IMG/VR virus record: IMGVR_UViG_3300002059_000001
Coordinates: 1 to 42,653 of that record
Length of the DNA stretch: 42,653 nucleotides
Source: a virus
Direction: 5' to 3' (one strand)
The position numbers and the translations under genes were made by a program. The notes below the pieces were generated by a model that was not told where the DNA came from, did not search any database, and saw only the letters and a list, made by a program, of their open reading frames with translations. Positions 13,093-36,627 of the stretch are shown here, piece by piece (positions within the stretch are counted from its first letter, which is position 1; each line of letters opens with the position of its first letter).

Positions 13093-15879
13093 ATGTCGTC
13101 AGGTTCGGCTATTATCGGCGCTCTGAGAGTTGTTTTCGGGGCCGATACGGCCGCCTTCGAGAAGGGCGTCGACAAGGTCGAGCGCGAAGCGAAGAAGATC
13201 GAGAAGCGGCTCGTTAAGCTAGGGAAGAAGTTTACCGACGTCGGGAAGAAAATGTCCGTCGGGATTACGGCTCCTCTCCTCGCTATCGGCGTCGCCTCCA
13301 TAAAAACCGCCGCTTCCATGCAAGAGCTCGAGAGCGCGTTCGACGTTACTTTTAAGGGAGCTTCCTCGAGCGTTCGTAAATGGGCGGAAGAGACAGGGGA
13401 TCTCCTCGGCCGTTCGACGAAAGAGATCCAGACCTCGGCCGTCGCGTTTCAGTCTCTATTCGGGAAGGCTCTCGACCCGGCGCAAGCGACGGAGCTCACA
13501 AAGCAATTTACAGTTTTAACGCAAGATCTCGCGTCCTTTAAGGATCTGTCGAACGAGGTCGCGCAGCAAAAGCTATTCTCTGGTCTAACCGGCGAAGCGG
13601 AACCTCTTAAGTCTGTCGGCGTGTTTATAAACGCCGCGGCGACAGAAGCGAAAGCTCTCGAGCTCGGCCTCGTTAAGGTAAACGGGAAGTTCACAGATCA
13701 GCAGAAGATCCTCGCTCGAGCGGCTCTTATTCAAGAGCAACTCGCCGAAGCGAACGGCGACGTCGTTAAAACGTTCGACAGCACGACGAACCAGCTTAAG
13801 AGATCCGGAGCGGCCTTCGAGGAGCTCCGCGTCGTTATCGGGACACAGCTTCTCCCGGTTATCACTCCGCTAATTGAAAAAGTCGCCGACGCTCTTACGG
13901 CGTTCTCTAATCTCCCGGAGCCGATTGTTAATACGATCCTCGTCGTCGGCGGATTGGCCGCCGCTCTCGGTCCAGTTATTGCGACCGTGGGGACGGTTAT
14001 AACTCTTTTCGCTCCATTAACGGCCGGCCTCGTCGCAGTAACGGGAGCGACGACAGCGTTCGGCGCGGCTATGACTATAGCTCTCGGACCAATAGGTCTC
14101 GTCGTCGCCGCTCTCGGCCTTCTATACATGGCCTATCGGACTCTATCCCCGGCGATAAAAGACAATAAGGAAGCTCGAGACGAGCTATATTCTTTAATCT
14201 CTCAGAACGAAGAGCTCGGGAAAAGGGAGAAGGCCTCCACCCTCGAGCAAGCTCGGGCGAACCTCGAGGACGCGAAGTCTATCAGGGAGCGAATTAAAGC
14301 TCGTTTAGAGGAGCAAGAGATCCTCCTTAAGAAACAGATTAAAGGCTTCGTCGCCGTAAATGCTACTCCGCAGGGGAAGGCTCTCGGAAAAATAACCGGG
14401 ACGAACAAAAGAATTACGGCGAACATAGAGAAGACGGCCGCCGCTATCCGCGCCTCTCGTGAAGCGTTAGAGGAAAACTCTTCCGCTATCGAAGGCGTCG
14501 AGGCGAACCTAGCAAAGCTAGGACAGGAATCCGTCGTCGCCGGCGCGAAGACCGCGGCTCTTCGGAAGGAGCAAGCCTCCGCGACAAAGACAGCGAAGGA
14601 ATTAGAGAAGGCCGCTAAGAAGCTCGCCGAAGCTCACTCGAAGACCGCCGCCGGCGCGAAACAGGAAATCGAGGAGAACGCACGATTAACGGCCGCCCTA
14701 AAGATCTCGAGGGAAGAGTACAACATAACCGCCGAGGAGATCCGTCTCGTAGAGGCCGGGTATCGCGGGACGAAAGAACAAGTCCGCGCTCTCGCCGAGG
14801 AGCTCGTCGCAAGCCGAACGGCTATGGACGAAGTCTCCGAAGCTCGGAAACAGTCTATCGCGGACGAGGAGGAAGCGCAGCGCGCGCTACAGAAGACGGC
14901 CGAGGACAAGGCCGCGGCTCTCGAGAGAGCGGCGGAGGATCATACTCGGACCGTAGAATCAATCCAAAAAGAGATAGAGAATAACCGACTTCTTACCGAG
15001 GCTATGCAGATCTCGACAAGAGAGTACGAGATACAAGTCGAAGTCCTCCGCTCTCTCGAAAGTGGCTTTAACGGATCCGCTCTCGAGGCTCGGGCATTGG
15101 CCGAAGAGTTGTTAAATACTCGGGACGCTTTGAAGGAAATTACAGAGGAAACGGAGAAGGCCGAGGCCGCGCAAAATAAATTGAACAGCTCGACGTCCTC
15201 GAGTGATAACTCCGGATTTAAGTTCGCAGAGGACGAGGCGTTTTTAGAGGACTTCACTAACACACTTAACTCCGCCACAGATACGCTCGAGGCGTTTAAG
15301 GATAAAGACTTCGGCTCTGTTTTTTCAGGTGTTGGGGAAAGTATCTTCGCCGCGTTTGGGAAGGCCGGCGATGCTATAGACGAGAACGGGAAGAAGGCCT
15401 TAGAAACTTTACAGGCGATAGGAACACAGTTCGGTGCTCTCCTAGAGTCTATAAAGAGCGGCGACTGGTTAGATATTTTAACTGAAGGTTTAGGCTTATT
15501 GGGTTCTTTTTTTGGTAAGTCTGGCGGCGGTTTTGGAGCTGGAGAAGGAACTGGTTTCGGCGACATATTAGCAGGTTTCGGCGGTCTTTTTGGAGGCGGG
15601 AAAGCAAAAGGCGGCCCGGTCGCCGCCGGAGTGACCTATCTCGTCGGGGAGAAGGGGCCGGAACTATTCACTCCTCCGGGGAACGGAAATATCGTACCGA
15701 ACGACAAACTCGGCGGAGGGATGGTTAAAGTCGTCGTCGAGGCGAACGATTACTTCGACGCTCGGGTCGACGAGCGCGCGGCCGGTGTTGCCGAACCTGT
15801 CGCGCAGGTCGCGGCGACACAAGGGATCCAACAATACAACACGGCCGGACGCCGGCGTAATAAGCAGAGGCTCGCATAA
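13093..15879 (+). CDS. tape measure protein (928 aa)
   Basis: Long coiled-coil-rich protein with a central hydrophobic Gly/Ala block (ILVVGGLAAALGPVIATVG...) and a Gly-rich C-terminus. Lies after the chaperone pair. Confidence 0.9.
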   Translation: MSSGSAIIGALRVVFGADTAAFEKGVDKVEREAKKIEKRLVKLGKKFTDVGKKMSVGITAPLLAIGVASIKTAASMQELESAFDVTFKGASSSVRKWAEETGDLLGRSTKEIQTSAVAFQSLFGKALDPAQATELTKQFTVLTQDLASFKDLSNEVAQQKLFSGLTGEAEPLKSVGVFINAAATEAKALELGLVKVNGKFTDQQKILARAALIQEQLAEANGDVVKTFDSTTNQLKRSGAAFEELRVVIGTQLLPVITPLIEKVADALTAFSNLPEPIVNTILVVGGLAAALGPVIATVGTVITLFAPLTAGLVAVTGATTAFGAAMTIALGPIGLVVAALGLLYMAYRTLSPAIKDNKEARDELYSLISQNEELGKREKASTLEQARANLEDAKSIRERIKARLEEQEILLKKQIKGFVAVNATPQGKALGKITGTNKRITANIEKTAAAIRASREALEENSSAIEGVEANLAKLGQESVVAGAKTAALRKEQASATKTAKELEKAAKKLAEAHSKTAAGAKQEIEENARLTAALKISREEYNITAEEIRLVEAGYRGTKEQVRALAEELVASRTAMDEVSEARKQSIADEEEAQRALQKTAEDKAAALERAAEDHTRTVESIQKEIENNRLLTEAMQISTREYEIQVEVLRSLESGFNGSALEARALAEELLNTRDALKEITEETEKAEAAQNKLNSSTSSSDNSGFKFAEDEAFLEDFTNTLNSATDTLEAFKDKDFGSVFSGVGESIFAAFGKAGDAIDENGKKALETLQAIGTQFGALLESIKSGDWLDILTEGLGLLGSFFGKSGGGFGAGEGTGFGDILAGFGGLFGGGKAKGGPVAAGVTYLVGEKGPELFTPPGNGNIVPNDKLGGGMVKVVVEANDYFDARVDERAAGVAEPVAQVAATQGIQQYNTAGRRRNKQRLA

Positions 15880-16478
15880 TGAAGATCTTACCGACAACAC
15901 CGGCCCCCTCGGCCGTAACACCTTCTTTAGTAGACTTCGGAAATACTTTAACGCCGGCTCTCGGCGGGTCCGAGCAACGGATTAACCGTCTCGGAAATAG
16001 GTTTCGGCTCTCCGTAACTATGCCGCCGATGCAGAATAAAGAACAAGGAATGAAGTTCGTTAACCGCCTAGTCCGCGGCCGCTCCGAAGGCTTAAGAATG
16101 AAGTTCCCTCTATCTGGATTTAATCCCGGAACTCCCGGCTCGCCGGCCGTCGACGGCGCTAATCACGCCGGCCGCCTTTTAGACGTCGCCGGCTTTACGC
16201 CCGGATATCAAATTAAGGAGGGACAGTTTTTCTCGATAGAGACCGACGGACAACACTATCTCTATATGATCGACGCGGATAACTCCTCCTCGACCGGCGC
16301 TCCGTATGGGGCGAACTTAGTTATCAATCCTATGCTAAGGATCCCTCCGAGCGATGGGGATATATGTCACTTCGCGCAGCCTATGATCGAAGGTTTAATC
16401 GAGGGATCCGAGACACAATGGAATTATGCTCTCGACTATAACGTCGGGATAGAGTTCACAATTAAGGAGCGGAGATAA
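15879..16478 (+). CDS. distal tail protein-position gene
   Basis: TAATG overlap with the tape measure gene. 199 aa. The call rests on position. Confidence 0.55.
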   Translation: MKILPTTPAPSAVTPSLVDFGNTLTPALGGSEQRINRLGNRFRLSVTMPPMQNKEQGMKFVNRLVRGRSEGLRMKFPLSGFNPGTPGSPAVDGANHAGRLLDVAGFTPGYQIKEGQFFSIETDGQHYLYMIDADNSSSTGAPYGANLVINPMLRIPPSDGDICHFAQPMIEGLIEGSETQWNYALDYNVGIEFTIKERR

Positions 16479-17125
16479 TGAGCTTCGACCCGGAATTTAT
16501 AACGACGACGACTTTAGTTCGCCTCGAGCTTCCAGCTCAAACCCTCCGGATCTGCGACGGAGGTTTTGTCTTTTGGGGAGCGGAGCCGAACGGTTCCGGC
16601 GGAACGGCCGCGCAGGGATATCTCTCCGAACATGCAGATTATGGAACGTTATACGCCGGCGGTTCTTTATTGGACGGCGAAGGGGACGAAAGTCCAGCGG
16701 CCGTAATTACATTCCTCGCAAATTCGAACGCGGCTCTCAATTCTCTAACCGGCCCAGAAATGCAATGGAGCCCGGTCGCCATATGGCAAGCCTCTGTCGA
16801 CTCTCAGGACGGAACCGTTATCGCAGCTATTCCTCTCTTCTTCGGCTTCGTCGATATTCCGACCTTACGCGAAGGAGCGGAGGGACGGTTCGTCGATATG
16901 GAAATCGTTTCCGATACGGAGCGAATGTTCCTCGCAAATGAAGGGAACCGTCTATCCGAAGAGTCTCACCAGCGCCGCTATCCGGGAGAGCGTGGATTGT
17001 CTAATATGACAGGCGTCGAACGTCAGGTCGCTTGGGGGACGGAAGACCGCCCTCGAGCGTCCTCGGGTTCTAGCGGCGGCGGATCAAGTCCTTTCGTTCC
17101 CGATATCGTCCGCCATATTTTTTAA
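16478..17125 (+). CDS. tail (hub-associated) protein
   Basis: TAATG overlap. 215 aa. Lies in the GTA g13-like position between the distal tail gene and the peptidase-like gene. Confidence 0.5.
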   Translation: MSFDPEFITTTTLVRLELPAQTLRICDGGFVFWGAEPNGSGGTAAQGYLSEHADYGTLYAGGSLLDGEGDESPAAVITFLANSNAALNSLTGPEMQWSPVAIWQASVDSQDGTVIAAIPLFFGFVDIPTLREGAEGRFVDMEIVSDTERMFLANEGNRLSEESHQRRYPGERGLSNMTGVERQVAWGTEDRPRASSGSSGGGSSPFVPDIVRHIF

Positions 17126-17134
17126 GGTAAGAGC

Positions 17135-17542
17135 ATGAAAACCGAATTAGAAATCCGCCGAGCCGCGACGGCCGCAACGCAAAAGAAGTTCTCCGGCCGG
17201 CCTTTTAAATGGGGAGAGGTCGATTGTATTCGTATGGCTCGCTCTCATGCGGTTAAGATGGGGCATAAGCCTCCGCGTCTTCCGAGATACTCGACCCCGC
17301 AAGCGGCTATCCGTAATATAAAAAAGATGGGCTTCGAGAGTGTCGACGAGATCCTCGCGTCGATGTTCCCGAAGATCTCCCTAGCCTCTGCGAGAATGGG
17401 AGACTTCGTCGTCGCCGAAGGAGAGGCCGGTATAGACGCGGTCTTTATCTCTCTCGGCCGTAAAATAATGGGGTTTCATGCCGAAGCCGACGAGCTTGTC
17501 GTCGTGGATCCCGAAGTCGTTAAATCAGTATATAGAGTTTAA
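17135..17542 (+). CDS. tail-associated NlpC/P60-like (GTA g14-like) protein
   Basis: RPFKWGEVDCIRMARSH provides a candidate Cys/His pair. About 135 aa, directly upstream of the host-specificity gene. Confidence 0.5.
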   Translation: MKTELEIRRAATAATQKKFSGRPFKWGEVDCIRMARSHAVKMGHKPPRLPRYSTPQAAIRNIKKMGFESVDEILASMFPKISLASARMGDFVVAEGEAGIDAVFISLGRKIMGFHAEADELVVVDPEVVKSVYRV

Positions 17543-17544
17543 TC

Positions 17545-20500
17545 ATGGCAAAAGCCCTAAAGACTATCGGAAAAATAGCGTCGGTTGCGGCGGTCGTTCT
17601 TGCTTTCGTTCCCGGTGGACAGCCGTTCGCCGCGGCCGCTTCCGCTATAGCCGGCGTCGCTAATGCTGGAGCTTCACTCCTCGCACAGCCGGAGCCGATA
17701 GGAGGGGAGAGTACAAACGTTTTAATAGATAAGTCCGCTCCGACTCCTTATGTTATGGGCCGAACATTGACAGGCGGCGCGCTCGTACACGACGCCGGCT
17801 ACGGTTCCGACTATAAAAAAATTCCGAACCCTAATAGATCTATGGTGTTCGTCTATTCGGATTGCGGTCCAGTGCAAGAGATCGAAGCCTTATACGCCGA
17901 CGGAGCCTCGGTAGGAAGCGGCGGCGAGATTGGCGGATATTACGACGAGCGTATGCACTACGATAAGCTCTCCGGCTCTCGACCAGAGTCCCGCGCGCTC
18001 TCTGGAAATCAAGGAACAATCCCGGATTGGGGCTCTAGCTATAAATTATCCGGGAAGGCTTCCGGTCTCGTAACTATGAGATGGGATAAGAATCAAGAGG
18101 TCTACGCCGCGGGAACCCCGGACTTCGCGGCCTTGATTAAAGGCGTTCGAGTTTACTCTATTCGCGACGACAGCACATATCCGGGGGGCTCCGGCTCGTG
18201 CCGGCTCGGGGACGAGACGACTTACATCTATAGCGAGAACCCGGCCGACCATGCCATAACATATCTTTACGGCCGGTATGAGCTTGGCGAGCGGATCTTC
18301 GGCGTCGGGAAATCTGTCGACGGGATAGATCTTCCGGCCTTTGTCGAGTGGGCGAATGTTTGCGACGCTAATAACTGGAAAGTCGGCGGCGTAATGTATG
18401 AACCAGCCGACAAGTGGAACAATCTTAAGGTTATTATGCAAACTGGATCCGCTCGTCCTGTCCATAATAACGGACAGCTCTCCGTCGTGTTTGATGCGCC
18501 TAAAGTTCCTCTCGCTGTTTTCACAGAAGACGACCTAGCGAACGGAGATATAACGGTCCCGTCGACTAGAACCTTCCGGAATAGAATTAATTCAATTATA
18601 CCTATCTTCCGTTCAGTCTCTCACGAGTGGCAATTTATTTCCGGGACAGCCGTCACGGTTTCGGATTACGTTACAGAAGACGGAGAGATAAAGAGATCCG
18701 AACGTAAATACTCTCTTTGTCAGGATGCGACTCACGGCGCGCAGCTCGCCGCTTATGAGGTCGTTAATTCTCGAGAGCTCGAGGGGATAACCCTTCCGTT
18801 CAAACCGAAGATCTTACCGTATGGTTCCGGCGACGCTATCGAATTAAATATGCCGAACCTCGGCCTCGTCGGAACGTTCGTTATTCAGACGCGCTCGTTC
18901 AATCCTCTAAATGCTATTACGACCGTCACAGTTAAAACCGAGACCGCGGCGAAACATAGCTTCGCGTTAGGAGCTTCCACAACAGTTCCGACGGCCCCTA
19001 CGCTTATGTTCGGAGCGGACCTTGATAGGATATCTTACAACGCGACCGGACAGGCCGCTATCAACGAAACACAAGTGCAAACTTCGTGGACGAACGGGAT
19101 CCAGATCGACGGAATTTCCGCGTCCGGAACTGCGACCGTAAACGTCTCAGGACATAGTCGAGTATATCCCGACGAGACAGTAACGGTTCAAAGCGGACAG
19201 CTTGTCGGATTGGTGCAAGATACCGACTACGTTATCTATTATGATGATATTCCTCGAGAAGGCGGCGCGGTCGGTTACTCGGCTATTCCCTCGTCGGATT
19301 ATTTAAACGATCCCGACGGCGGTAAAGGCCGACACTTCGTCGGATATATAAAAACGCCGAAGACGGACAGCGCCGCGAATACTGTCGGCGTTCCGCCCAT
19401 CCCTCCTAATGTTGTTCCCGAAACAGTCCCTAACGCTCTCGGCCTTGGCGGCGTCGTCGCGGAAGAGATTATTCAGAACATATCTACGAACGCCTCTTCG
19501 GTCGCGGCATTACAGGCGACCTATGGATCTACGGCTTCCGCCGCCGCTTCCGCCGCTTCCGCCGCGGCCGCACAGTCCGCCGCCGAGAGCGCTCAAAGTT
19601 TATCAGAGGCCGCCCAGTCCGCCGCCGAGACCGCCGCCGCTTCCGCCGATAGTTTCCAAAGTTCCGCGGCCGCAAGTGCTACCTCGGCGTCGACTTCGGC
19701 TTCGGCTTCTGAGACCGCTAAAAATATAGCGACGGCCGCACAGACCGCAGCGTCCGGATCTGCTACAGCGGCGGAGCAACATTCCTCCTCCGCGTCTATC
19801 TCGGCCTCGACGGCGTCTCAGTCCACCGCCGCCGGCCGTCCCTCGACCTTTGAAAGCGGCGGAGAATATTTTGTTTCCGCGCCTCTGTCAGACCCTATAA
19901 CGGGCTCTCCGGCCGACAATTCCTCGAACATTGTTTCGGGATCCGACACCGACGGAAGCTATCTTTCGAACACAAGCTCCGGCGACGCTCCGTCCATCTT
20001 ACAAAGGCTCGGGATCCCTTACGTTCCCGGAGAGAAGTATCGTGTCTCGACGAGGTTTAAGGTTCTGTCCGGATCTCCTTCGTCTGTAATTATCAGAGGT
20101 CGCCGGATTAATGGGGATTATACTCAGTCTCTCTCCGCGCATGGATTAACCGTCCCTCTCGCTTCGACAACGGTCGACGATTACGTCTTCGAATTTACAG
20201 CGAGTCAGGCGAGGTTCGACGAGGGAACGAGAATAGTAAGAGCCGAGGTTGATATAAACCCGGACGAGAACCAAGTCCTCGCCGTTTACAGTTTAAACAT
20301 AGAAAACATTACGGCCGTCGCGGCCGCCGAAGATAGCGCTACGGCCGCCGCTTCGAGCGCTTCCGCCGCCGCCGCGTCTGAGACCTCGGCCGGACAAAGC
20401 GCAAGCGCGGCTCAAACGTCCGAGACCGCCGCCGAGACCTCTCGCTCCGCCGCGGAGACTTCCGAGATAAACGCCGCGACGTCCGAAACCTCGGCCGCCG

Positions 20501-23500
20501 CTTCGTCCGCCGCCGCCGCGACGTCTGAGACGAACGCCGCTAACTCCGCGTCCTCGGCCGGTGGATCCGCGTCTTCCGCGACGTCCTCCGCTTCCGCCGC
20601 GGAAACCAGCGCTTCCGCCGCCGCGACGAGTGCTTCCGCCGCGGAACAATCTTCCGTAGATGCGACGACCGCACAGTCCGCCGCACAGTCCGCCGCGACC
20701 GCCTCGGCTTCGAGCGCTTCCGCCGCGTCCGCTTCTGAGACCGCCGCGGGGCAAAGCGCGACTTCCGCCCAAACCGCGCGGACTTCGGCCGAGACCGCCG
20801 CCGCGAATGCGTCGACAAGTGAGGGGAACGCCGCGTCCTCTGAGACGAGCGCGCAGGGATCCGCCGCTTCCGCCGCTTCGAGTGAAACGGCCGCGGCTAA
20901 CTCCGCAACCGACGCCGGGAACTCTTCTTCGGCCGCGGCGACGTCCGCGACAGAGGCCGCTACGTCCGCGACAGAATCGGAAACCTCGGCTTCCGCGTCG
21001 GAACAATCTTCGATTAATGCGGCGACGTCTGAGACGAACGCCGCTTCTTCCGCTACGGCCGCGTCGTCGAGCGCTTCTTCGGCCGCCGCCTCTGAGACCG
21101 CCGCCGGGCAAAGCGCTAACGCCGCCTCGTCAAGTGAGACGGCCGCGGCGACCTCTGCTTCTAACGCGGCCAACTCTGAGACTTCGGCCGCGACGTCTGA
21201 GACGAACGCCGCCGGCTCGGCGAGTTCTGCGACGTCTTCCGCCTCGAGCGCCGCTTCGAGTGCCGGGAGCGCTGGATCTTCCGCCTCGGCCGCGGCTAAC
21301 TCCGCAACTCAAGCCGCGACCTCCGCGACCGACGCCGGCGTCTCTTCTTCGGCCGCCGCCGCTTCCGCCGTTAATGCGTCCACAGCGCAAGAGTTATCCG
21401 AGGCCGCGACGCGGGAGGCCCGACCTTCTACCTTTGAATCTGGCGGGAAATACTTCACCTCTTCCACTTTATCTCCTCCCGAAACCGCCGCGAATGCCGA
21501 CGCTAATTCTTCCATAGAAGCCGGCTCCGATGCCGACGGATATTTTTTGAAGATAAACGACCCGGACAAACAGCCGTCGATCTTTCAGAAGTTCGGGGTC
21601 TCGTATAATCCCGGAGATAAATATCGGGTATCTGTCCGTCTCAAATCTCTAACCGGAACGCCGTCTCGTGTAATTCTCCGGGGTCGGAGATTAAGCGGAG
21701 ATTATGCTACATCTTTAGGCACAGATGGTCTTATCGTTACTGAAACCGCCACGACGACGGCGACGGATTATGTCTTCGAGTTTTCAGCAACTCAGGCTCT
21801 CTACGATACAGGCGTTCGTATATTGAAAGCCGAGGTCGAGGCTAACCCTCTCGAAGAGCAAACGGTCGCGATATATAAACTTGATATCGAAAATATTACG
21901 GCGCAATCCGAAGCCGAAGACAGCGCCGCCGCTTCCGCTTCGAGCGCTTCTTCCGCCGCCGCTTCTGAGACGGCCGCAGGACAAAGCGCCAACGCCGCCC
22001 AAACCTCTGAGACGGCCGCGTCTACCTCTGCCGCCAATGCCTCCGCCTCGGAAGGTAACGCGGCGACCTCAGAAACGAATGCGGCCGGATCCTCGTCCGC
22101 CGCCGCCGCGTCTGAGAGCGTCGCCGCGACGGCCGCGGCCAATGCCTCGACCTCTGAAACAAACGCCGCCGCCTCTGAGACGAGCGCCGCGTCTTCCGCG
22201 TCCGCCGCCGCCTCGAGTGCTTCGTCGGCTTCGGCCTCGGAGACAGCGGCCGGGCAATTCTCGAACGCCGCTTCGAGTTCTGAGACCGCCGCTTCGACGT
22301 CCGCCGCCAATGCCGCCGCTAGTTCTTCCAGCGCCGCGACCTCCGCGACGAACGCCGCCGGCTCCGCTTCGGCCGCAAGTTCAAGTCAAACCTTAAGCGC
22401 CGCCGCGGCCGATGCAGCGGAAGCCGCTGTCGTCGATACGCTCCCGTCTACTTTTGAAAACCCCGACGCTTACTTCTCCCATAACTTAGGAGGAGCTCCT
22501 TCCGCGATGCCGTCTCTAACTGGCGGTTCGAATTGGGAGGCCATAACGGACCCCACAGAGGGGCCGGGAGTTGCCGTTACACCGGGGGAGACCGGAGATT
22601 GGTTAAGTCAAAAAGGTGTCCTTCCGGCTCTTCCGGGACACACATATAGATTAACTGCGAGGATTAAGGAGACCGCGACTCCTACGAACGATAGAGTTCA
22701 AGTTAGAATGTGGCGATTGGACGCTAGTTATTCGACTTTAGGGCAAGCCGCAAAGACCGCGACCCTAATCTTAAACTCTGTCGAAGAGGTTACGCACGAG
22801 TTCACTTTATCGACTGGACATTACAATTCGGGCGCGCGGTTTATTCGAGCGGCTCTGTCGGTAAACCTGCTTTCCAACGGCTCAAACGATGGATTGTGGG
22901 AAATCTATATGCTTAAGCTCGAGGATATCACAGATCTAAAAACCCTCGAGGCGACCGTTAATAGTAACGCGACCGTCTCCGCAAATAATACGACTTCGAT
23001 AGCTTCCTTAAGTAATACGGTTACGGCGCAGGGAAATTCCCTTTCGGGTCTATCCGCTTCCGCGTCCGCGACACAGACCGCCGTCGATGATATCGAGCAA
23101 GGCCTCCTCGCGTCCATTGGGTTTCGGGTTAAAGCGGGAACAAGCGGAGCGGAGTTTGAATTGTCCGCGCTCGACGGCGGAGATATATCCGGATCGGTCG
23201 CGCGAATTTCCGCGGCCGCTATTATACTCGACGGAACTCTCTCGGCCGCTCACTTCGCCGATGGGTCGATCTTTAATATCGCCGAGGAGGATATCGCGCT
23301 CTCGGCTTATCTAAGCCCGTCGACAGAATACACCGTTCTCTCGAAAGCCTTTACTAGCGCCGGCGGGAAGGTTCGTTTCGATATCAACATAGGAGGCCAT
23401 CTTGGAAACACCGGCGGACCTAGTGTCTCCGACATGCATAGCCAGACTCGACAGCTTGTTTGCAAGTTATATCGAGACAACGTTTTTATAGGTAATTATT

Positions 23501-23733
23501 TTTCTGGAACTTTCTCCACGGTCTACGACGACGTCGCGGATAAGTATGTTAAGAATGGAATTGAAACTATATCTTTTATTGCGACCGATAATCCAGCCGC
23601 CGGGACATATACTTATGATATCCGTCTTATTGAGACCGTGATTATTGAGAACACAATCTCGGGGAATAACGTCGGGGATCCAAGAATAAATATCTCTTCG
23701 GGTTACGCCTATATTACCGAGTTCAACGATTAG
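17545..23733 (+). CDS. host specificity / central tail fibre protein (2062 aa): J/GTA g15-like N-terminus, three [Ser/Ala heptad rod + CBM-like domain] modules, J-like C-terminus
   Basis: The first ~640 aa and the last ~260 aa look like lambda J / GTA g15-type tip proteins. The interior is described under findings. Confidence 0.9.
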   Translation: MAKALKTIGKIASVAAVVLAFVPGGQPFAAAASAIAGVANAGASLLAQPEPIGGESTNVLIDKSAPTPYVMGRTLTGGALVHDAGYGSDYKKIPNPNRSMVFVYSDCGPVQEIEALYADGASVGSGGEIGGYYDERMHYDKLSGSRPESRALSGNQGTIPDWGSSYKLSGKASGLVTMRWDKNQEVYAAGTPDFAALIKGVRVYSIRDDSTYPGGSGSCRLGDETTYIYSENPADHAITYLYGRYELGERIFGVGKSVDGIDLPAFVEWANVCDANNWKVGGVMYEPADKWNNLKVIMQTGSARPVHNNGQLSVVFDAPKVPLAVFTEDDLANGDITVPSTRTFRNRINSIIPIFRSVSHEWQFISGTAVTVSDYVTEDGEIKRSERKYSLCQDATHGAQLAAYEVVNSRELEGITLPFKPKILPYGSGDAIELNMPNLGLVGTFVIQTRSFNPLNAITTVTVKTETAAKHSFALGASTTVPTAPTLMFGADLDRISYNATGQAAINETQVQTSWTNGIQIDGISASGTATVNVSGHSRVYPDETVTVQSGQLVGLVQDTDYVIYYDDIPREGGAVGYSAIPSSDYLNDPDGGKGRHFVGYIKTPKTDSAANTVGVPPIPPNVVPETVPNALGLGGVVAEEIIQNISTNASSVAALQATYGSTASAAASAASAAAAQSAAESAQSLSEAAQSAAETAAASADSFQSSAAASATSASTSASASETAKNIATAAQTAASGSATAAEQHSSSASISASTASQSTAAGRPSTFESGGEYFVSAPLSDPITGSPADNSSNIVSGSDTDGSYLSNTSSGDAPSILQRLGIPYVPGEKYRVSTRFKVLSGSPSSVIIRGRRINGDYTQSLSAHGLTVPLASTTVDDYVFEFTASQARFDEGTRIVRAEVDINPDENQVLAVYSLNIENITAVAAAEDSATAAASSASAAAASETSAGQSASAAQTSETAAETSRSAAETSEINAATSETSAAASSAAAATSETNAANSASSAGGSASSATSSASAAETSASAAATSASAAEQSSVDATTAQSAAQSAATASASSASAASASETAAGQSATSAQTARTSAETAAANASTSEGNAASSETSAQGSAASAASSETAAANSATDAGNSSSAAATSATEAATSATESETSASASEQSSINAATSETNAASSATAASSSASSAAASETAAGQSANAASSSETAAATSASNAANSETSAATSETNAAGSASSATSSASSAASSAGSAGSSASAAANSATQAATSATDAGVSSSAAAASAVNASTAQELSEAATREARPSTFESGGKYFTSSTLSPPETAANADANSSIEAGSDADGYFLKINDPDKQPSIFQKFGVSYNPGDKYRVSVRLKSLTGTPSRVILRGRRLSGDYATSLGTDGLIVTETATTTATDYVFEFSATQALYDTGVRILKAEVEANPLEEQTVAIYKLDIENITAQSEAEDSAAASASSASSAAASETAAGQSANAAQTSETAASTSAANASASEGNAATSETNAAGSSSAAAASESVAATAAANASTSETNAAASETSAASSASAAASSASSASASETAAGQFSNAASSSETAASTSAANAAASSSSAATSATNAAGSASAASSSQTLSAAAADAAEAAVVDTLPSTFENPDAYFSHNLGGAPSAMPSLTGGSNWEAITDPTEGPGVAVTPGETGDWLSQKGVLPALPGHTYRLTARIKETATPTNDRVQVRMWRLDASYSTLGQAAKTATLILNSVEEVTHEFTLSTGHYNSGARFIRAALSVNLLSNGSNDGLWEIYMLKLEDITDLKTLEATVNSNATVSANNTTSIASLSNTVTAQGNSLSGLSASASATQTAVDDIEQGLLASIGFRVKAGTSGAEFELSALDGGDISGSVARISAAAIILDGTLSAAHFADGSIFNIAEEDIALSAYLSPSTEYTVLSKAFTSAGGKVRFDINIGGHLGNTGGPSVSDMHSQTRQLVCKLYRDNVFIGNYFSGTFSTVYDDVADKYVKNGIETISFIATDNPAAGTYTYDIRLIETVIIENTISGNNVGDPRINISSGYAYITEFND
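19490..19839 (+). repeat. Ser/Ala heptad (21-nt periodic) rod 1, about 16 heptads
   Basis: STASAAA SAASAAA AQSAAES AQSLSEA AQSAAET ... STAAGRP, ending in phase at PSTFESGG. Confidence 0.85.
20321..21423 (+). repeat. Ser/Ala heptad (21-nt periodic) rod 2, about 52 uninterrupted heptads
   Basis: SATAAAS SASAAAA SETSAGQ SASAAQT SETAAET ... SAVNAST AQELSEA. Position 1 is Ser/Ala in every heptad. Position 5 is Ala in about 49 of 53. Confidence 0.9.
21907..22443 (+). repeat. Ser/Ala heptad (21-nt periodic) rod 3, about 26 heptads
   Basis: SAAASAS SASSAAA SETAAGQ SANAAQT ... SQTLSAA AADAAEA, ending in phase at PSTFEN. Confidence 0.85.
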
Positions 23734-33716: not shown

Positions 33717-34943
33717 TTAGGATCCTTTCTTTTTCGGTTTAGTTTTAGGAGTTGGTTTAGAGGCCGCCTTCTCAGTCGCCACAATACGCGCGCTCTCGAT
33801 CTGGATAAATTCCTTCGTCTTCTCGTCGAGCTCGAGGAACCACTTCTCGGCTTGCTCGGAGGCGAGATCCTTTTCGAAGGTGGATATATCGAAGTCCGAG
33901 GATCTGAGATAATCGAACCAGTCGACCGCCAAGCGTGGGAGATCTATCTCCTCCTCGCTCGCCTCGGACGAAGTCGGGAGAGTGGGGTCTCCCTCTGTTT
34001 CGTCCGAGGCGGCGTCCGCCGAAGAAGGAGAGGCTTCCTCCGCGGGAACTTGTTCTTCTTCTGGAATGCATATCCGACCGAAGACACCTTTACACCCCTC
34101 GACGTCACAACCCGATTTCGGTCCCGCTCCCGTCTCGTCCCATATCCTATCTCTACAATTCGCCGGCCGCTCGTCGACGTCTACTTCCTCGGGCTCGAGA
34201 TCTATTTCGATAATGATATCGCCCTCGTCGTCGTTCGGTCCCTTTAGAGCTTTGATCTTATCCCCGAGCTTAGATCCTCGAGGTTCTCTGGACTTTCGGA
34301 TCGTCTCCGCATGGTCGGCTTGCTCCTCGGCGATTTGGAGGCCGTACATCTGGTCGGCGAGCGCGTCGCGGACAGCCCATCCGATAGCCCGTCGCCATAT
34401 CATACGCTTAGGGTACTTCCACCACGGCGAGTCGTTCTTCGTTTCGTAAGGGCCGTTCCGGCCGTCCTTCATAATCATAGGCTCCGTTTGCCATAGGTCC
34501 GCGCGGATAGCGTCCTTAACTGAGAAGGAGCGAATTACTTCGGATCCACTGTCGGACCGCACGATCTGGATAGTCGCCGTATAGGTCTCGTCCTCGATAG
34601 TTCCGGAGAAGTCTTCCATAAAGAAGTGACCAGACCGAAGGAGGATAGCAGGAAGCCCGTCCGCATAGACCGACGGCTTCCCGTTTATTATCGTGATGCA
34701 GGCGAGGGATTGCGTGTTCGTAAACCCGAGATCCTGTCCCATCCCGAGCGCGTACATAACCTCCTTATCGTTCTGGAACGCCTTCGGGACTAGACCCGAC
34801 TGGAACAATAGTTGCGCGGCTCTGTAGAGCTCCTCGACGTTCTGTCGCTCTCCCCATCCGGGAGGCGGAGACATATCGATCTCCCCGGTCTTCGCCGGAA
34901 GGGTCTTAAGGTCTTTATTCAATTCGGGATCTTGCTCGGACAT
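33717..34943 (-). CDS. recT: RecT-family single-strand annealing protein with a long acidic C-terminal extension
   Basis: LFQSGLVPKAF...ALGMGQDLGFTNTQSLACITIINGKPSVYADGLPAILLRSGH...KYPKRMIWRRAIGWAVRDA follows the RecT pattern. The last ~150 aa are Asp/Glu/Ser-rich. Confidence 0.8.
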   Translation of the reverse strand: MSEQDPELNKDLKTLPAKTGEIDMSPPPGWGERQNVEELYRAAQLLFQSGLVPKAFQNDKEVMYALGMGQDLGFTNTQSLACITIINGKPSVYADGLPAILLRSGHFFMEDFSGTIEDETYTATIQIVRSDSGSEVIRSFSVKDAIRADLWQTEPMIMKDGRNGPYETKNDSPWWKYPKRMIWRRAIGWAVRDALADQMYGLQIAEEQADHAETIRKSREPRGSKLGDKIKALKGPNDDEGDIIIEIDLEPEEVDVDERPANCRDRIWDETGAGPKSGCDVEGCKGVFGRICIPEEEQVPAEEASPSSADAASDETEGDPTLPTSSEASEEEIDLPRLAVDWFDYLRSSDFDISTFEKDLASEQAEKWFLELDEKTKEFIQIESARIVATEKAASKPTPKTKPKKKGS

Positions 34944-35401: not shown

Positions 35402-35569
35402 CTATTCTCCCGCTTCGGTTCTAAGAGTGTCGACGGCCGCTTCTAGCTCTTGAACGACGACCTCTATCGAGACGTTATTCGTATCACTTGCGAGGAGGTC
35501 GACCGTCTCGATAATGGCTTCGATCTCGGAAGCGAGAGCGAGAGCCCGGTCTCTATGGTCCTTCTTCAC
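35402..35569 (-). CDS. 55-aa acidic helical mini-protein (absent from the ORF track)
   Basis: The GTG at 35569 forms a GTGA overlap with the exonuclease stop. Product is VKKDHRDRALALASEIEAIIETVDLLASDTNNVSIEVVVQELEAAVDTLRTEAGE*. It fills the gap before 35398. Confidence 0.5.
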   Translation of the reverse strand: MKKDHRDRALALASEIEAIIETVDLLASDTNNVSIEVVVQELEAAVDTLRTEAGE

Positions 35570-36627
35570 GACCGAGCCTCCACGACGCGGAGCTTGCTAT
35601 CGAGCTCCGGATATGTCCCCGAGTCGATCATCTTTTTAAGGTCGTCCATAAAATGCCCGGACGGCGTATAGCGGAGGATCTCGGTAACATATCCCTCCCA
35701 CTCGCCGGTTACGGGGGCGATACCCTTCTCGAATTGGTGGATCCCGTAAATCGCCTTCGCGACCATCTTATGCATATAGTCGCCGTATGGATCGACCTCG
35801 ATAGCCGTTATTCCCCAAGGGGTCTTAGACTTCTGGAACACAAGGCCGAAGGTTAGATCTGCGAAGTTCACGTCGTATAGACGGGTCGAGGCGAGACCGA
35901 CGTTAGCGAGCTTTAGATCGTAACCCCACTTCGCAATCGCGTAACGACAGAGAGCCGGCTTATTATTGTCTATCGTTTTGAAGTCGCTAATTAGGGTCGA
36001 GCCGAGAGCGTATCGCGTCGCCGAGGTTATGAGCGACCGCTTCTTAATTACCTTCCCCTTCGCGTCGACTGGACGAACCGGGAGGATATCCGGCCGCGTC
36101 TTAACGTAAGTCGGACCTTCCTTAAAGATCATAGATAGTTCGGGGATCCCGTACTCGAAGAGCGCGTTCGCCTCGGGATGGTCTATAATCCGCTCCGCCA
36201 TAGCGTCGACAGCCGCGACCTCGTGTTCGAAGATTGCGATTAGACCCTTCCGGACCTCTTGCATCCATACCCACTCGGCGAGATCCTTCGTCCGGAATGT
36301 TTTGTTACTCCACTTCTTCGGGATTAGGATAAAGTCTTCCTTATGCCAGTCCTCCGCTCCCATTAGGATTCGAGCGTGGGCCGCGTGTCCGAATTTGAAG
36401 TGTCTCGTATGAGCTTTATATTCCTCGAGGGGATTATACTCGGGATTGTATTTACTCGTCGCGAAGTATTCCTCGCCGCTCTCCGCGCACGTCGCGACCT
36501 CGCTCGAGGACAGAGACGGAGCCGCGCATATATCGGAATGGTATCTCCACAGCGGAATATCGTAGACCCCTTCGTCGTGGATCTTCTCCGACAGAGGAAG
36601 CGTTCTAATTGGTAAAGCCTTGGGCAT
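35566..36627 (-). CDS. PD-(D/E)XK exonuclease (RecE / exonuclease VIII-like)
   Basis: ..FKFGHAAHARIL.., ..VKTRPDILPV.. (D) and ..LISDFKT.. (D-x-K), placed directly upstream of recT. Confidence 0.7.
   Translation of the reverse strand: MPKALPIRTLPLSEKIHDEGVYDIPLWRYHSDICAAPSLSSSEVATCAESGEEYFATSKYNPEYNPLEEYKAHTRHFKFGHAAHARILMGAEDWHKEDFILIPKKWSNKTFRTKDLAEWVWMQEVRKGLIAIFEHEVAAVDAMAERIIDHPEANALFEYGIPELSMIFKEGPTYVKTRPDILPVRPVDAKGKVIKKRSLITSATRYALGSTLISDFKTIDNNKPALCRYAIAKWGYDLKLANVGLASTRLYDVNFADLTFGLVFQKSKTPWGITAIEVDPYGDYMHKMVAKAIYGIHQFEKGIAPVTGEWEGYVTEILRYTPSGHFMDDLKKMIDSGTYPELDSKLRVVEARS

Follow-up and report, generated by a model that had tools for sequence, protein, structure and literature searches.

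The longest Ser/Ala-rich segment of a 2062-amino acid fibre protein, encoded in a viral stretch of DNA of 42,653 nucleotides (the window), is likely a parallel homotrimeric coiled coil and the longest of three shaft segments, which would serve as a spacer of ~54 nm in the central tail fibre of a siphophage. We number these segments rods 1, 2 and 3, the longest being rod 2. Judged by its repeat rule, S-x-x-x-A-x-x, rod 2 is an unusually long and pure case of a repeat type that is already known from the side fibres of phage lambda.

Rod 2 lies within a single open reading frame (ORF) that its database matches identify as the J-like central tail fibre gene of a siphophage of ~42.6 kb. Specifically, a PHROG search matched phrog_5616 (tail fiber) to amino acids 7-761 (E 2.5e-52) and phrog_31 (central tail fiber J) to amino acids 223-441 (E 6.7e-16), and the best matches of the protein among cultured phages are in Caulobacter phage Kronos-like genomes, where these matches are annotated 'host specificity protein J'. 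The J-like ORF comes last in a run of tail genes, after those for the tape measure, the distal tail protein, the hub and an NlpC-like protein (13093-23733, + strand; Table 1). J-type tips are trimers. The protein is present in identical form on four contigs, so misassembly of a single contig does not explain its repeat array.

Table 1. Positions in the window of the fibre gene, its parts and the tail-tip genes upstream of it
Feature	Amino acids	Position	Strand	Basis
Tape measure (upstream tail-tip gene)		13093-15879	+	PHROG and Pfam matches
Distal tail protein (upstream tail-tip gene)		15879-16478	+	PHROG and Pfam matches
Tail/hub protein (upstream tail-tip gene)		16478-17125	+	PHROG and Pfam matches
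DUF6950/NlpC-P60-like protein (upstream tail-tip gene)		17135-17542	+	PHROG and Pfam matches
J-like central tail fibre / host-specificity protein, single ORF; houses rod 2	2062 in all	17545..23733	+	ORF list
N-terminal tip-attachment (J-like) domain	1-640	17545..19464	+	PHROG matches
Rod 1, 16 heptads, relaxed rule	655-766	19507..19842	+	Register listing from amino acid 655; composition
D1, CBM-like β-sandwich	765-923	19837..20313	+	Profile match; fold inferred from D2 model
Rod 2, 52 unbroken S-x-x-x-A-x-x heptads, ~54 nm as coiled coil	924-1287	20314..21405	+	Register, composition
Rod 2 super-repeat unit 1, 17 heptads, 357 nt	119 in all	20335..20691	+	Inter-unit identity
Rod 2 super-repeat unit 2		20692..21048	+	Inter-unit identity
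Rod 2 super-repeat unit 3		21049..21405	+	Inter-unit identity
D2, CBM-like β-sandwich; rod helices enter and leave	1293-1452	21421..21900	+	AlphaFold2, Foldseek
Rod 3, 25 heptads, ~26 nm	1453-1627	21901..22425	+	Same rule as rod 2; composition
D3, divergent CBM-like copy	1633-1796	22441..22932	+	Identity to D1/D2; Pfam
Fourth coil, ordinary L/V/I hydrophobic core	1797-1860	22933..23124	+	Composition
C-terminal distal domain	1861-2062	23125..23730	+	Likeness to relatives' ends

From the N-terminus the fibre incorporates a tip domain, three successive pairs of a Ser/Ala rod and a CBM-like β-sandwich (D1 to D3), a canonical coiled coil and, at the C-terminal end, a distal domain. The tip domain shares 57-62% identity with the N-termini of the related proteins P0004-P0012, the C-terminal extensions of which are all different. 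An AlphaFold2 model of D2, built on a 34-sequence alignment (mean pLDDT 92.7, pTM 0.87), was compared with the PDB using Foldseek and matched CBM16, CBM4, CBM22, CBM61 and CBM6 (E down to 2.8e-6, TM 0.55-0.70), while in BFVD it matched phage tail proteins and CenC-like CBMs. D1 is 56% identical to D2, and D3 is 27-29% identical to both, with a Pfam CBM_4_9 match that falls below threshold (E 0.016). The D domains are presumably glycan-binding. The fourth coil contains 23% hydrophobic residues at a spacing of 3-4 residues. The distal domain, whose end resembles by eye the C-termini of P0008, P0009, P0010, P0013 and P0014, is the probable receptor-binding tip; in addition, P0122 matches amino acids 1856-1909 in BLASTP.

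When rod 2 is read in frame, the sequence from SATAAAS to AQELSEA spans amino acids 931-1287 (nucleotides 20335-21405) and is exactly 51 heptads long with no register breaks, and a strict in-phase caller takes in the preceding AVAAAED heptad to give 52. The about 52 unbroken heptads claimed by the first-pass annotation are therefore present in one register, but the interval given for them, 20321-21423, is offset by one base from the frame of the ORF and translates to a Pro/Arg-rich frame with stops. Its description of the heptads holds, as position 1 is Ser in 46 and Ala in five of the 51 listed (88% Ser over all 52, the rest Ala), position 5 is Ala in 47 and Ser in the other four (92% Ala over all 52), and the remaining positions are nearly all A, S, T, E, N, Q or G. 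Across its 364 amino acids rod 2 is 38% Ala, 28% Ser and 12% Thr (S+A 66.5%), lacks Pro, and contains two Arg, no Lys and 30 Asp or Glu, for a net charge near -28. All 12 Gly fall at positions 3, 6 or 7. Hydrophobic residues make up 1.9% and none is at position 1 or 5, which agrees with the core essentially free of them described earlier. Ser and Thr, both poor in helix propensity, together account for 40% of rod 2. Residue identity at lags of 7, 14, 21 and 28 is 0.43-0.47 (z = 8-10.5 against composition shuffles; 10.5 at lag 7) and no other lag stands out in the autocorrelation. Taking S+A as 66.5%, the chance probability of 104 consecutive small-residue core positions is about 4e-19.

The same rule had been proposed for rods 1 and 3. 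It extends fully to rod 3, where position 1 is Ser in 84% and position 5 Ala in 92% of heptads, but only loosely to rod 1, for which we used a relaxed rule of a small residue at both positions: in one phase, its 16 heptads have Ser (7), Ala (7), Phe (1) or His (1) at position 1 and Ala at position 5 in 12, and the lag-7 z is only 2.2. If helical, rods 1, 2 and 3 would be ~17, ~54 and ~26 nm long.

We propose that each chain of rod 2 would form one continuous α-helix of about 364 residues and that three such helices would wrap around one another in parallel as a left-handed coiled coil. The core would then be built from the Ala of position 5 at a and the Ser of position 1 at d, with e and g (positions 2 and 4; mostly Ala, Glu, Ser and Asn) widening the buried seam, and with b, c and f (positions 6, 7 and 3), where Thr, Ser, Glu, Gln, Asn and every Gly are found, facing the solvent. 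Core side chains this small should make the bundle thin, its radius near 5 Å like that of alanine-zipper trimers. Given the absence of Lys and the presence of only two Arg there would be no ionic e-g' pairs, and the register is probably set by the flanking trimeric β-domains.

The first alternative to be considered is that rod 2 folds back on itself. Its 51 listed heptads form exactly three 119-residue units with amino acid identities of 56-62%, as compared to 40-47% for the majority of other in-register offsets. At the nucleotide level, copies 357 nt apart are 59-63% identical and in-register identity is otherwise about 50%, and repeat families show 357-nt spacings. On this evidence a 17-heptad unit was triplicated long ago to give rod 2. 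The three units could in principle form an intrachain antiparallel three-helix bundle of about 18 nm, since small-core helices can pack in this way and Ala at every seventh residue is the signature of the alacoil, an antiparallel two-stranded helix pair. We consider this improbable. The heptad phase is unbroken at both unit boundaries, where neither Pro nor a Gly-rich turn occurs and the nearest Gly are at in-phase b, c or f positions, and AlphaFold2 run on the single sequence gives the rod ends as straight uninterrupted helices. Moreover, the rod-plus-domain modules recur in 29 of 206 related proteins with rods of 6-52 heptads, so that rod length has varied in evolution, in support of the earlier suggestion that it could be tunable, and the relatives' rods of 6-45 heptads between the same domains are not multiples of three units. 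The comparable segments of lambda Stf and DT57C LtfA (see below) are also extended parallel trimers. For rod 2 itself we rejected the alacoil: it shares Ala at each seventh residue and tight helix packing, but the fibre context implies a parallel homotrimer, and the "alacoil-type" label of the first-pass annotation is therefore not appropriate.

It is also very improbable that rod 2 is an intrinsically disordered Ser/Ala/Thr-rich linker, like those joining CBMs in glycoside hydrolases. Rod 2 does join CBM-like domains, is of very low complexity with almost no hydrophobic residues, gives zero domains in a Pfam search, and in single-sequence AlphaFold2 its parts are predicted with low confidence (pLDDT 46-72). 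However, those parts are still predicted as helix, and when an alignment is supplied the heptads adjoining D2 are predicted helical at a pLDDT of 76-96 (about 96 for heptads 1-2 of rod 3) and run straight on from the β-domain. A linker would have no reason to keep a seven-residue register over 52 repeats, to exclude Pro entirely, to confine Gly to three of the seven positions or to hold Ser at position 1 across synonymous and cross-family codon changes, and the same rule is found in Stf and LtfA, both described as trimeric coiled coils. The disordered linker that had been raised as the opposing outcome is therefore unlikely, and these data support the idea of a heptad-periodic helical rod with a Ser/Ala core, most likely a tightly packed trimer.

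In the DNA of rod 2, the 21-nt periodicity noted earlier was recovered (z 11 against codon shuffles), together with a 10.5-nt harmonic (z 25). However, adjacent 21-nt units share only about 50% identity, Tandem Repeats Finder returns only 2-3-copy fragments, and the same codon is kept in just 18 of the 54 columns in which all three super-repeat units share an amino acid. Position-1 Ser is encoded by five codons (TCC, TCT, TCG, AGC and AGT) from both Ser families, so the constraint is on the amino acid and not on the DNA. The only recombination substrates are exact in-register microhomologies of 20-26 nt, spaced at multiples of 21 nt and longer than the position-wise codon-shuffle null (15 ± 2). 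With copies only 50-63% identical, the description of the array as slippage-prone was overstated. That the periodicity belongs primarily to the DNA, as a recently expanded slippage-prone tandem array with the protein pattern as its by-product, is hardly credible: it could account for the 21- and 10.5-nt power and the exact repeats but not for the divergence between units, the codon usage or the presence of the same amino acid rule in Stf.

As segments of a trimeric shaft, the rods would act as spacers that place triads of CBM-like, presumably glycan-binding, domains about 17, 54 and 26 nm apart and hold the distal domain >100 nm from the tail tip. The virion might thereby make contact at several depths within a thick polysaccharide layer. 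Rod length shifts by whole heptads, and rod-plus-domain modules are exchanged between fibres.

The repeat is less unusual than the first-pass annotation implied, as the rods match PHROG tail-fibre families 3279 and 1419 (E about 5e-31) and the rule is found in other phage fibres. In lambda Stf, which is also orf-401 in lambda PaPa, residues 110-353 follow S-x-x-x-A-x-x in one phase for about 35 heptads (Ser at position 1 in 25 of 37 and Ala at position 5 in 31 of 37). Residues 102-393 of Stf have been described as forming the proximal coiled coil of a three-chain side fibre, and the model of a trimeric coiled coil is consistent with cryo-ET (PMC12617516). Both fibres contain short motifs such as TSETNA, and the Stf rod likewise lies between an attachment domain and the distal domains of a trimeric fibre. 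However, the Stf rod has many Lys, Arg, Glu and Asp outside and an occasional Val or Leu in its core, whereas rod 2 is nearly devoid of basic residues, and it belongs to a side fibre without CBM-like interruptions rather than to a J-type central fibre. Composition-corrected BLASTP of the window fibre against Stf detected no significant similarity (E 0.18), so the shared rule could reflect convergence rather than common ancestry with the known members. A second example is the N-terminal shaft of the DT57C L-shaped fibre protein LtfA, of the T5 family, where residues 7-224 match amino acids 911-1143 of the window fibre (E 5e-4, phmmer); the same LtfA region is matched by Stf. LtfA (PDB 8HQZ chain d) is the sole solved structure matched by the fibre sequence, and no long Ser/Ala heptad rods came up among solved structures. 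In LtfA, cryo-EM shows a coiled coil of three helices that begins at residue T40, with only its first dozen or so helical residues said to be resolved (PMC10713586). Its Ala/Ser/Glu-rich heptad region resembles rod 2 but is more charged, and the fibre is lateral, attached via a collar protein.

Outside of lateral and side fibres, rod 2 shares a core of the smallest side chains, from which a very small superhelix radius of about 5.2 Å is expected, with alanine-zippers and other small-core coiled coils, namely Ala mutants of Lpp-56 and honeybee and hornet silk. In the Lpp-56 trimer, alanine cores reduce the radius from 6.1 to 5.2 Å, according to the account of Liu & Lu (2002) given in PMC12284834. 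However, the Lpp-56 zippers are engineered and short, the silks form heterotetramers in which a, d, e and g are Ala, and neither has systematic Ser at d or is a phage fibre. The closest parallel in a J-like central fibre is PA0641 of the F-pyocin, for which a trimeric coiled-coil shaft has been resolved by cryo-EM (bioRxiv 10.64898/2026.02.24.707460). As in the window fibre, a J-like tip is followed by a C-terminal trimeric coiled-coil shaft (residues 907-1084) ending in a β-domain. In PA0641 the shaft runs to about 180 residues, its a/d core is conventionally hydrophobic and contains a stutter, and side fibres dock on it, whereas the shaft of the window fibre consists of three Ser/Ala rods, about 650 residues in total, punctuated by CBM-like domains.

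The only long open reading frame across the rod 2 interval encodes the J-like central tail fibre protein, and within it the Ser/Ala segment that runs from SATAAAS to AQELSEA comprises exactly 51 heptads, all in frame and with no register break. The first-pass annotation had described just such an uninterrupted S-x-x-x-A-x-x array, although its bounds of 20321-21423 need correction, as they lie one base out of the ORF frame and, translated as given, yield a Pro/Arg-rich sequence with stops. Using a strict heptad caller, which required Ser or Ala at position 1 and Ala or Ser at position 5 and disallowed Pro, one further heptad (AVAAAED) is added, giving 52 heptads in which position 1 is Ser in 88% and position 5 is Ala in 92%. 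Counted over the 51 heptads, position 1 holds Ser in 46 and Ala in 5, and position 5 holds Ala in 47 and Ser in 4, with Ala and Glu at position 2, Thr and Ser at position 3, Ala, Ser and Asn at position 4, Ala, Glu and Gly at position 6, and Thr, Ser and Ala at position 7; the residue rule first described for each heptad column agrees with these counts. Autocorrelation of the protein sequence gives an identity of 0.43-0.47 at lags of 7, 14, 21 and 28 residues (z = 8-10.5 against shuffled sequences), and enrichment at other lags was not found.

The composition of rod 2 is extreme. Ser and Ala together make up 66.5% of its residues, from which, by our own arithmetic, the chance of 104 consecutive small core residues is ~4e-19. 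The near-absence of hydrophobic residues that was noted at first is borne out (1.9% of rod 2, with none at position 1 or 5), and the Leu, Ile, Val or Met expected at a and d of a canonical coiled coil is thus missing, a difference which had also been recognised. There is no Pro or Lys, only 2 Arg, and 30 Asp plus Glu; Gly occurs 12 times (3.3%), every time at position 3, 6 or 7. Since the identical 2062-residue protein is present on four contigs, a one-off assembly artefact cannot account for the array. The claim that rods 1 and 3, the two other Ser/Ala segments, follow the same rule holds for rod 3, which keeps it through 25 heptads, but in rod 1 only a relaxed version applies: a single phase runs over 16 heptads with a small residue at positions 1 and 5, but position 1 holds Ser 7 times, Ala 7 times, Phe and His, and the lag-7 signal is weak (z 2.2).

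The window is essentially the whole genome of a siphophage (~42.6 kb); besides the large terminase, portal and major head protein it encodes an endolysin, RecT/exonuclease, a DnaB-like helicase and a methyltransferase. The fibre gene directly follows those for the tape measure, the distal tail protein, a tail/hub protein and a DUF6950/NlpC-P60-like protein; for the last, which adjoins the fibre gene, the NlpC/P60 match is marginal (22 bits against a cut-off of 23). The first ~640-760 residues of the fibre match the PHROG tail fiber family phrog_5616 (E 2.5e-52) and the central tail fiber J family phrog_31, its N-terminal part is 37% identical to the "host specificity protein J" of Caulobacter phage Kronos-like genomes, and homologues of this domain are named 'Tip attachment protein J domain-containing'. 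Both the J-like N-terminus and the gene order are therefore those of a tip attachment protein J, or central tail fibre. The homologues of the J-like domain are phage or prophage proteins of Sphingomonas, Novosphingobium, Sphingobium, Sphingopyxis, Caulobacter and Brevundimonas, with others on ~40-kb metagenomic contigs, and from these taxa the host is probably an alphaproteobacterium. Relatives that are up to 57-62% identical over the N-terminal third have entirely different C-terminal extensions; the distal fibre is mosaic.

Coordinates of the fibre gene, its segments and other features of the phage genome
Feature	Nucleotides	Strand	Residues
Tail-tip gene run	13093-17542		
DUF6950/NlpC-P60-like protein	17135-17542		
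Fibre ORF	17545-23733	+	2062 in all
Rod 1			655-766
D1	19837-20313		
Rod 2, 51 heptads	20335-21405		931-1287
Rod 2, strict caller, 52 heptads	20314-21405		924-1287
D2	21421-21900		
Rod 3			1453-1627
D3	22441-22932		
Fourth coil	22933-23124		1797-1860
Long ORF over rods	20293-21111	-	
Long ORF over rods	20412-21173	-	
Long ORF over rods	20660-21517	+	
Long ORF over rods	21801-22310	-	
Long ORF over rods	21881-22396	+	
RecT-like annealase	33717-34943	-	
Exonuclease VIII-like protein	35566-36627	-	

The J-like domain is followed by rod 1, D1, rod 2, D2, rod 3, D3, a fourth coil and a C-terminal domain of ~200 residues, where D1-D3 are CBM-like beta-sandwich domains, one after each rod. D1 shares 56% identity with D2, and D3 shares 27-29% with either. 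AlphaFold2, using a 34-sequence alignment, models D2 and its flanks with a mean pLDDT of 92.7 and a pTM of 0.87 as a beta-sandwich with helices entering and leaving, and the first two heptads of rod 3 as helix (pLDDT ~96); a single-sequence model of residues 1218-1507 reached a pLDDT of 51, inadequate for a fold search. When the D2 model was submitted to Foldseek, it matched CBM16, CBM4, CBM22, CBM61 and CBM6 (E down to 2.8e-6, TM 0.55-0.70), and also lay near many phage tail proteins and CenC-like CBMs, so that D2 as modelled has the beta-jelly-roll fold of CBMs. No D domain reaches the Pfam gathering score for a CBM family, the only match being a sub-threshold one of CBM_4_9 to D3 (16 bits against a cut-off of 25.9), and Pfam searches with the whole ORF and its pieces found no rod family. 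The relationship to CBMs is thus at the level of the fold only, and sugar binding is putative. The junctions of the D domains are conserved across distant homologues, with 'PS.F' at the entry from the rod and 'L.IEDIT' at the exit into the next rod, a consensus which suggests that the register between rod and domain is fixed. The fourth coil, just before the distal domain, has an ordinary Leu/Val/Ile core, so that a single chain combines Ser/Ala and canonical coils. With 0.148 nm for each residue, rods 1, 2 and 3 would be ~17, 54 and 26 nm long and the fourth coil some 9-12 nm, which would give a central fibre of more than 100 nm bearing, if trimeric, three nodes of three CBM-like domains each.

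Ser/Ala rods are found in only 8 of 120 J-like homologues, the remainder using different coil repeats. A prophage of Brevundimonas sp. LPMIX5 encodes a fibre with such rods (P0110). A tblastn search with rod 2 against 50,697 phage genomes gave no match, the query being masked by the low-complexity filter. Searching 1.84 billion representative proteins with a profile of D1-D3 retrieved 87, many of which alternate a D-type domain with Ser/Ala rods, whereas a homologous-protein search with D2 alone gave no matches. Four giant metagenomic tail-fibre proteins, P0129 (3443 aa, 6 domains, lambda-J-like N-terminus), P0124 (4870 aa, at least 9 domains), P0125 (5201 aa) and P0133 (3790 aa), have at least 6 repeats of a module made of a Ser/Ala heptad rod and a CBM-like beta-sandwich, and point to what may be a widespread beads-on-a-string fibre architecture; P0122, a further relative, carries the same modules on another N-terminal domain without BLASTP-detectable similarity to that of the ORF. 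The suggestion that rod length is evolutionarily tunable is consistent with a comparison of 97 rods in 206 related proteins; the rods span 6 to 52 heptads (median 12), rod 2 being the longest and the next 45 and 41 heptads. As this spread indicates, rod length has clearly changed in the course of evolution, by whole heptads and via unit or module duplication. Related-locus searches returned nothing from viral contigs with D2, one 5-kb contig with the three-domain alignment and nothing from reference genomes with the J-like domain, and no near-identical phage genome in which a recent heptad gain or loss could be seen was found in them.

What kind of structure does rod 2 form? Its two conserved positions alternate at intervals of 4 and 3 residues, as a and d do in a heptad, with position 5 as core a and position 1 as core d; e and g (positions 2 and 4) hold Ala, Glu, Ser or Asn, and b, c and f (positions 6, 7 and 3) hold polar residues and all of the Gly. 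Judged from sequence, a helix that buries one broad seam would be expected to show just such a distribution. J-type central fibres are trimers, and it is this context that suggests a trimeric rod, the monomer AlphaFold2 model giving a helix.

Known shafts offer a comparison. Compared by heptad columns, residues 110-353 of lambda Stf (orf-401) follow the rule of rod 2 in one phase, with Ser in 25 of 37 heptads at position 1 and Ala in 31 of 37 at position 5, and in Ur-lambda residues 102-393 of Stf were assigned as the proximal coiled-coil domain of a three-chain side fibre by segment-wise modelling consistent with cryo-ET (PMC12617516). The only solved structure matched by the sequence of the fibre is DT57C LtfA (8HQZ chain d, residues 7-224; phmmer E 5e-4, with high composition bias), a region that lambda Stf also matches, while a PDB sequence search with one 119-residue unit of rod 2 gave no matches. 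In the cryo-EM structure of LtfA a long helix from T40 forms a three-helix coiled coil, of which only about the first dozen helical residues are described as resolved (PMC10713586). The J-type F-pyocin protein PA0641 has a trimeric coiled-coil shaft, resolved by cryo-EM, after its J-like domain (bioRxiv 10.64898/2026.02.24.707460). Small-core trimers are physically established, going by the work on Lpp-56 as it is cited in PMC12284834, where replacing the core by Ala reduced the radius from 6.1 to 5.2 A (Liu & Lu 2002). These comparisons and this precedent make a parallel homotrimer the best explanation, and rod 2 is most probably a thin parallel homotrimeric coiled coil with Ala at a and Ser at d, the oligomeric state and orientation being inferred from the fibre context. 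The structural reading of the first-pass annotation, a Ser/Ala-core coiled-coil rod, was largely right.

It had also named alacoil-type packing, and the small residue at every seventh place that is expected of an alacoil is found in rod 2 (Ala at position 5); however, 52 in-phase heptads without a turn or loop, in a fibre context that implies a parallel trimer, make antiparallel two-helix packing unlikely. Rod 2 is built of three tandem 17-heptad units, each of 119 aa or 357 nt, with protein identities of 56-62% against 40-47% at most other in-register offsets. Folding of these units back on each other as an antiparallel alacoil-like bundle is improbable and favoured by nothing we found, and against it the heptad phase is continuous across the unit boundaries, turn residues are absent, and in relatives the same domains flank rods of 6-45 heptads.

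A disordered Ser/Ala/Thr interdomain linker, which would have no fixed period and be rich in Pro or Gly, is contradicted by the strict period of seven, by the lack of Pro and the low, phase-restricted Gly, and by codon-level evidence for selection on Ser. The DNA array is degenerate: Tandem Repeats Finder reports fragments of 2-3 copies only, in-register identity between heptads is ~50% at the nucleotide level, and the position 1 Ser residues use the codons TCC, TCT, TCG, AGC and AGT, so it is the amino acid and not the DNA that is constrained. Low nucleotide identity among the copies, with synonymous divergence, contradicts a purely DNA-driven repeat, and for the same reason the argument that the array is prone to slippage was overstated.

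The 21-nt periodicity itself is present, with a z of 11 over 20314-21405 against codon-shuffled controls; the strongest DNA periodicity, at 10.5 nt (z 25), is read as its second harmonic. DNA identity between the three units is 59-63% against ~50% at most other in-register offsets, and of 54 columns in which all three units carry one residue, only 18 also keep a single codon, so the triplication is old. The motif that starts each unit, SAS.A.ASETAAGQSA..A, is found again both at the start of rod 3 and further inside it. The longest exact repeats measure 20-26 nt, exceeding a position-wise codon-shuffle null of 15 +/- 2, and those within rod 2 are spaced by multiples of 21 nt; in-frame, in-register recombination could start from them, and in principle the RecT/exonuclease system of the phage could act on these microhomologies. 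Five long antisense or out-of-frame ORFs over the rods (169-285 aa), which are Arg/Pro/Gly- or Ala/Glu/Val-rich, were rejected as genes and regarded as by-products of the GCN/TCN codon runs; in lambda the annotated 'orf206b' lies antisense to the coiled-coil region of Stf.

We have thus described a phage central fibre, predicted to exceed 100 nm, which is built from a minimal alphabet of Ser/Ala-core coiled-coil spacers alternating with carbohydrate-binding-like domains, and in which spacer length has changed in steps of whole heptads, through unit duplication and module shuffling. This helps to annotate the many low-complexity stretches in metagenomic tail fibres and to explain their spurious antisense ORFs, and protein engineering could draw on the rods for thin, acidic, register-perfect trimeric shafts. 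A bolder proposal is that such rods are a distinct class, namely ultra-thin polar-core trimers. The Ser hydroxyls could then form a continuous ladder on the three-fold axis, perhaps with water or ions, and the rods would be marginally stable, almost without ionic or hydrophobic stabilisation. They might act as length-tunable rulers matched to the thickness of the host capsule or exopolysaccharide, or respond mechanically and pass the signal of receptor binding on to a tail tip more than 100 nm away, and with the CBM-like domains would constitute a widespread family of giant polyvalent glycan-binding fibres of up to ~5200 aa. Taken jointly, we consider these points improbable.

A full-text literature search on alanine-rich coiled-coil tail fibres matched no papers, the paper 'Building coiled coils with polar cores' does not deal with Ser/Ala rods of phages, and no high-resolution structure of a long Ser/Ala rod surfaced in our solved-structure searches; given how little of the LtfA helix is described as resolved, such a structure would fill a gap. 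The novelty implied for the rod was overstated: this type of repeat is already present in lambda, and finding rod 2 does not change current understanding. Rod 2 shows both the heptad rule and the tail-fibre location of the Ser/Ala shaft class (Stf/Ltf), and the rods match the PHROG tail-fibre families 3279 and 1419 (E ~5e-31). BLASTP of rod 2 against lambda Stf is not significant after composition correction (E 0.18), and because the rods are of low complexity, common ancestry with the shafts of Stf and the T5 family cannot be shown. Rod 2 works like these shafts and obeys their sequence rule, but differs from them in belonging to a central J-type fibre whose rods are interrupted by CBM-like domains, and in its extreme length and purity, almost without charged-pair or hydrophobic residues.
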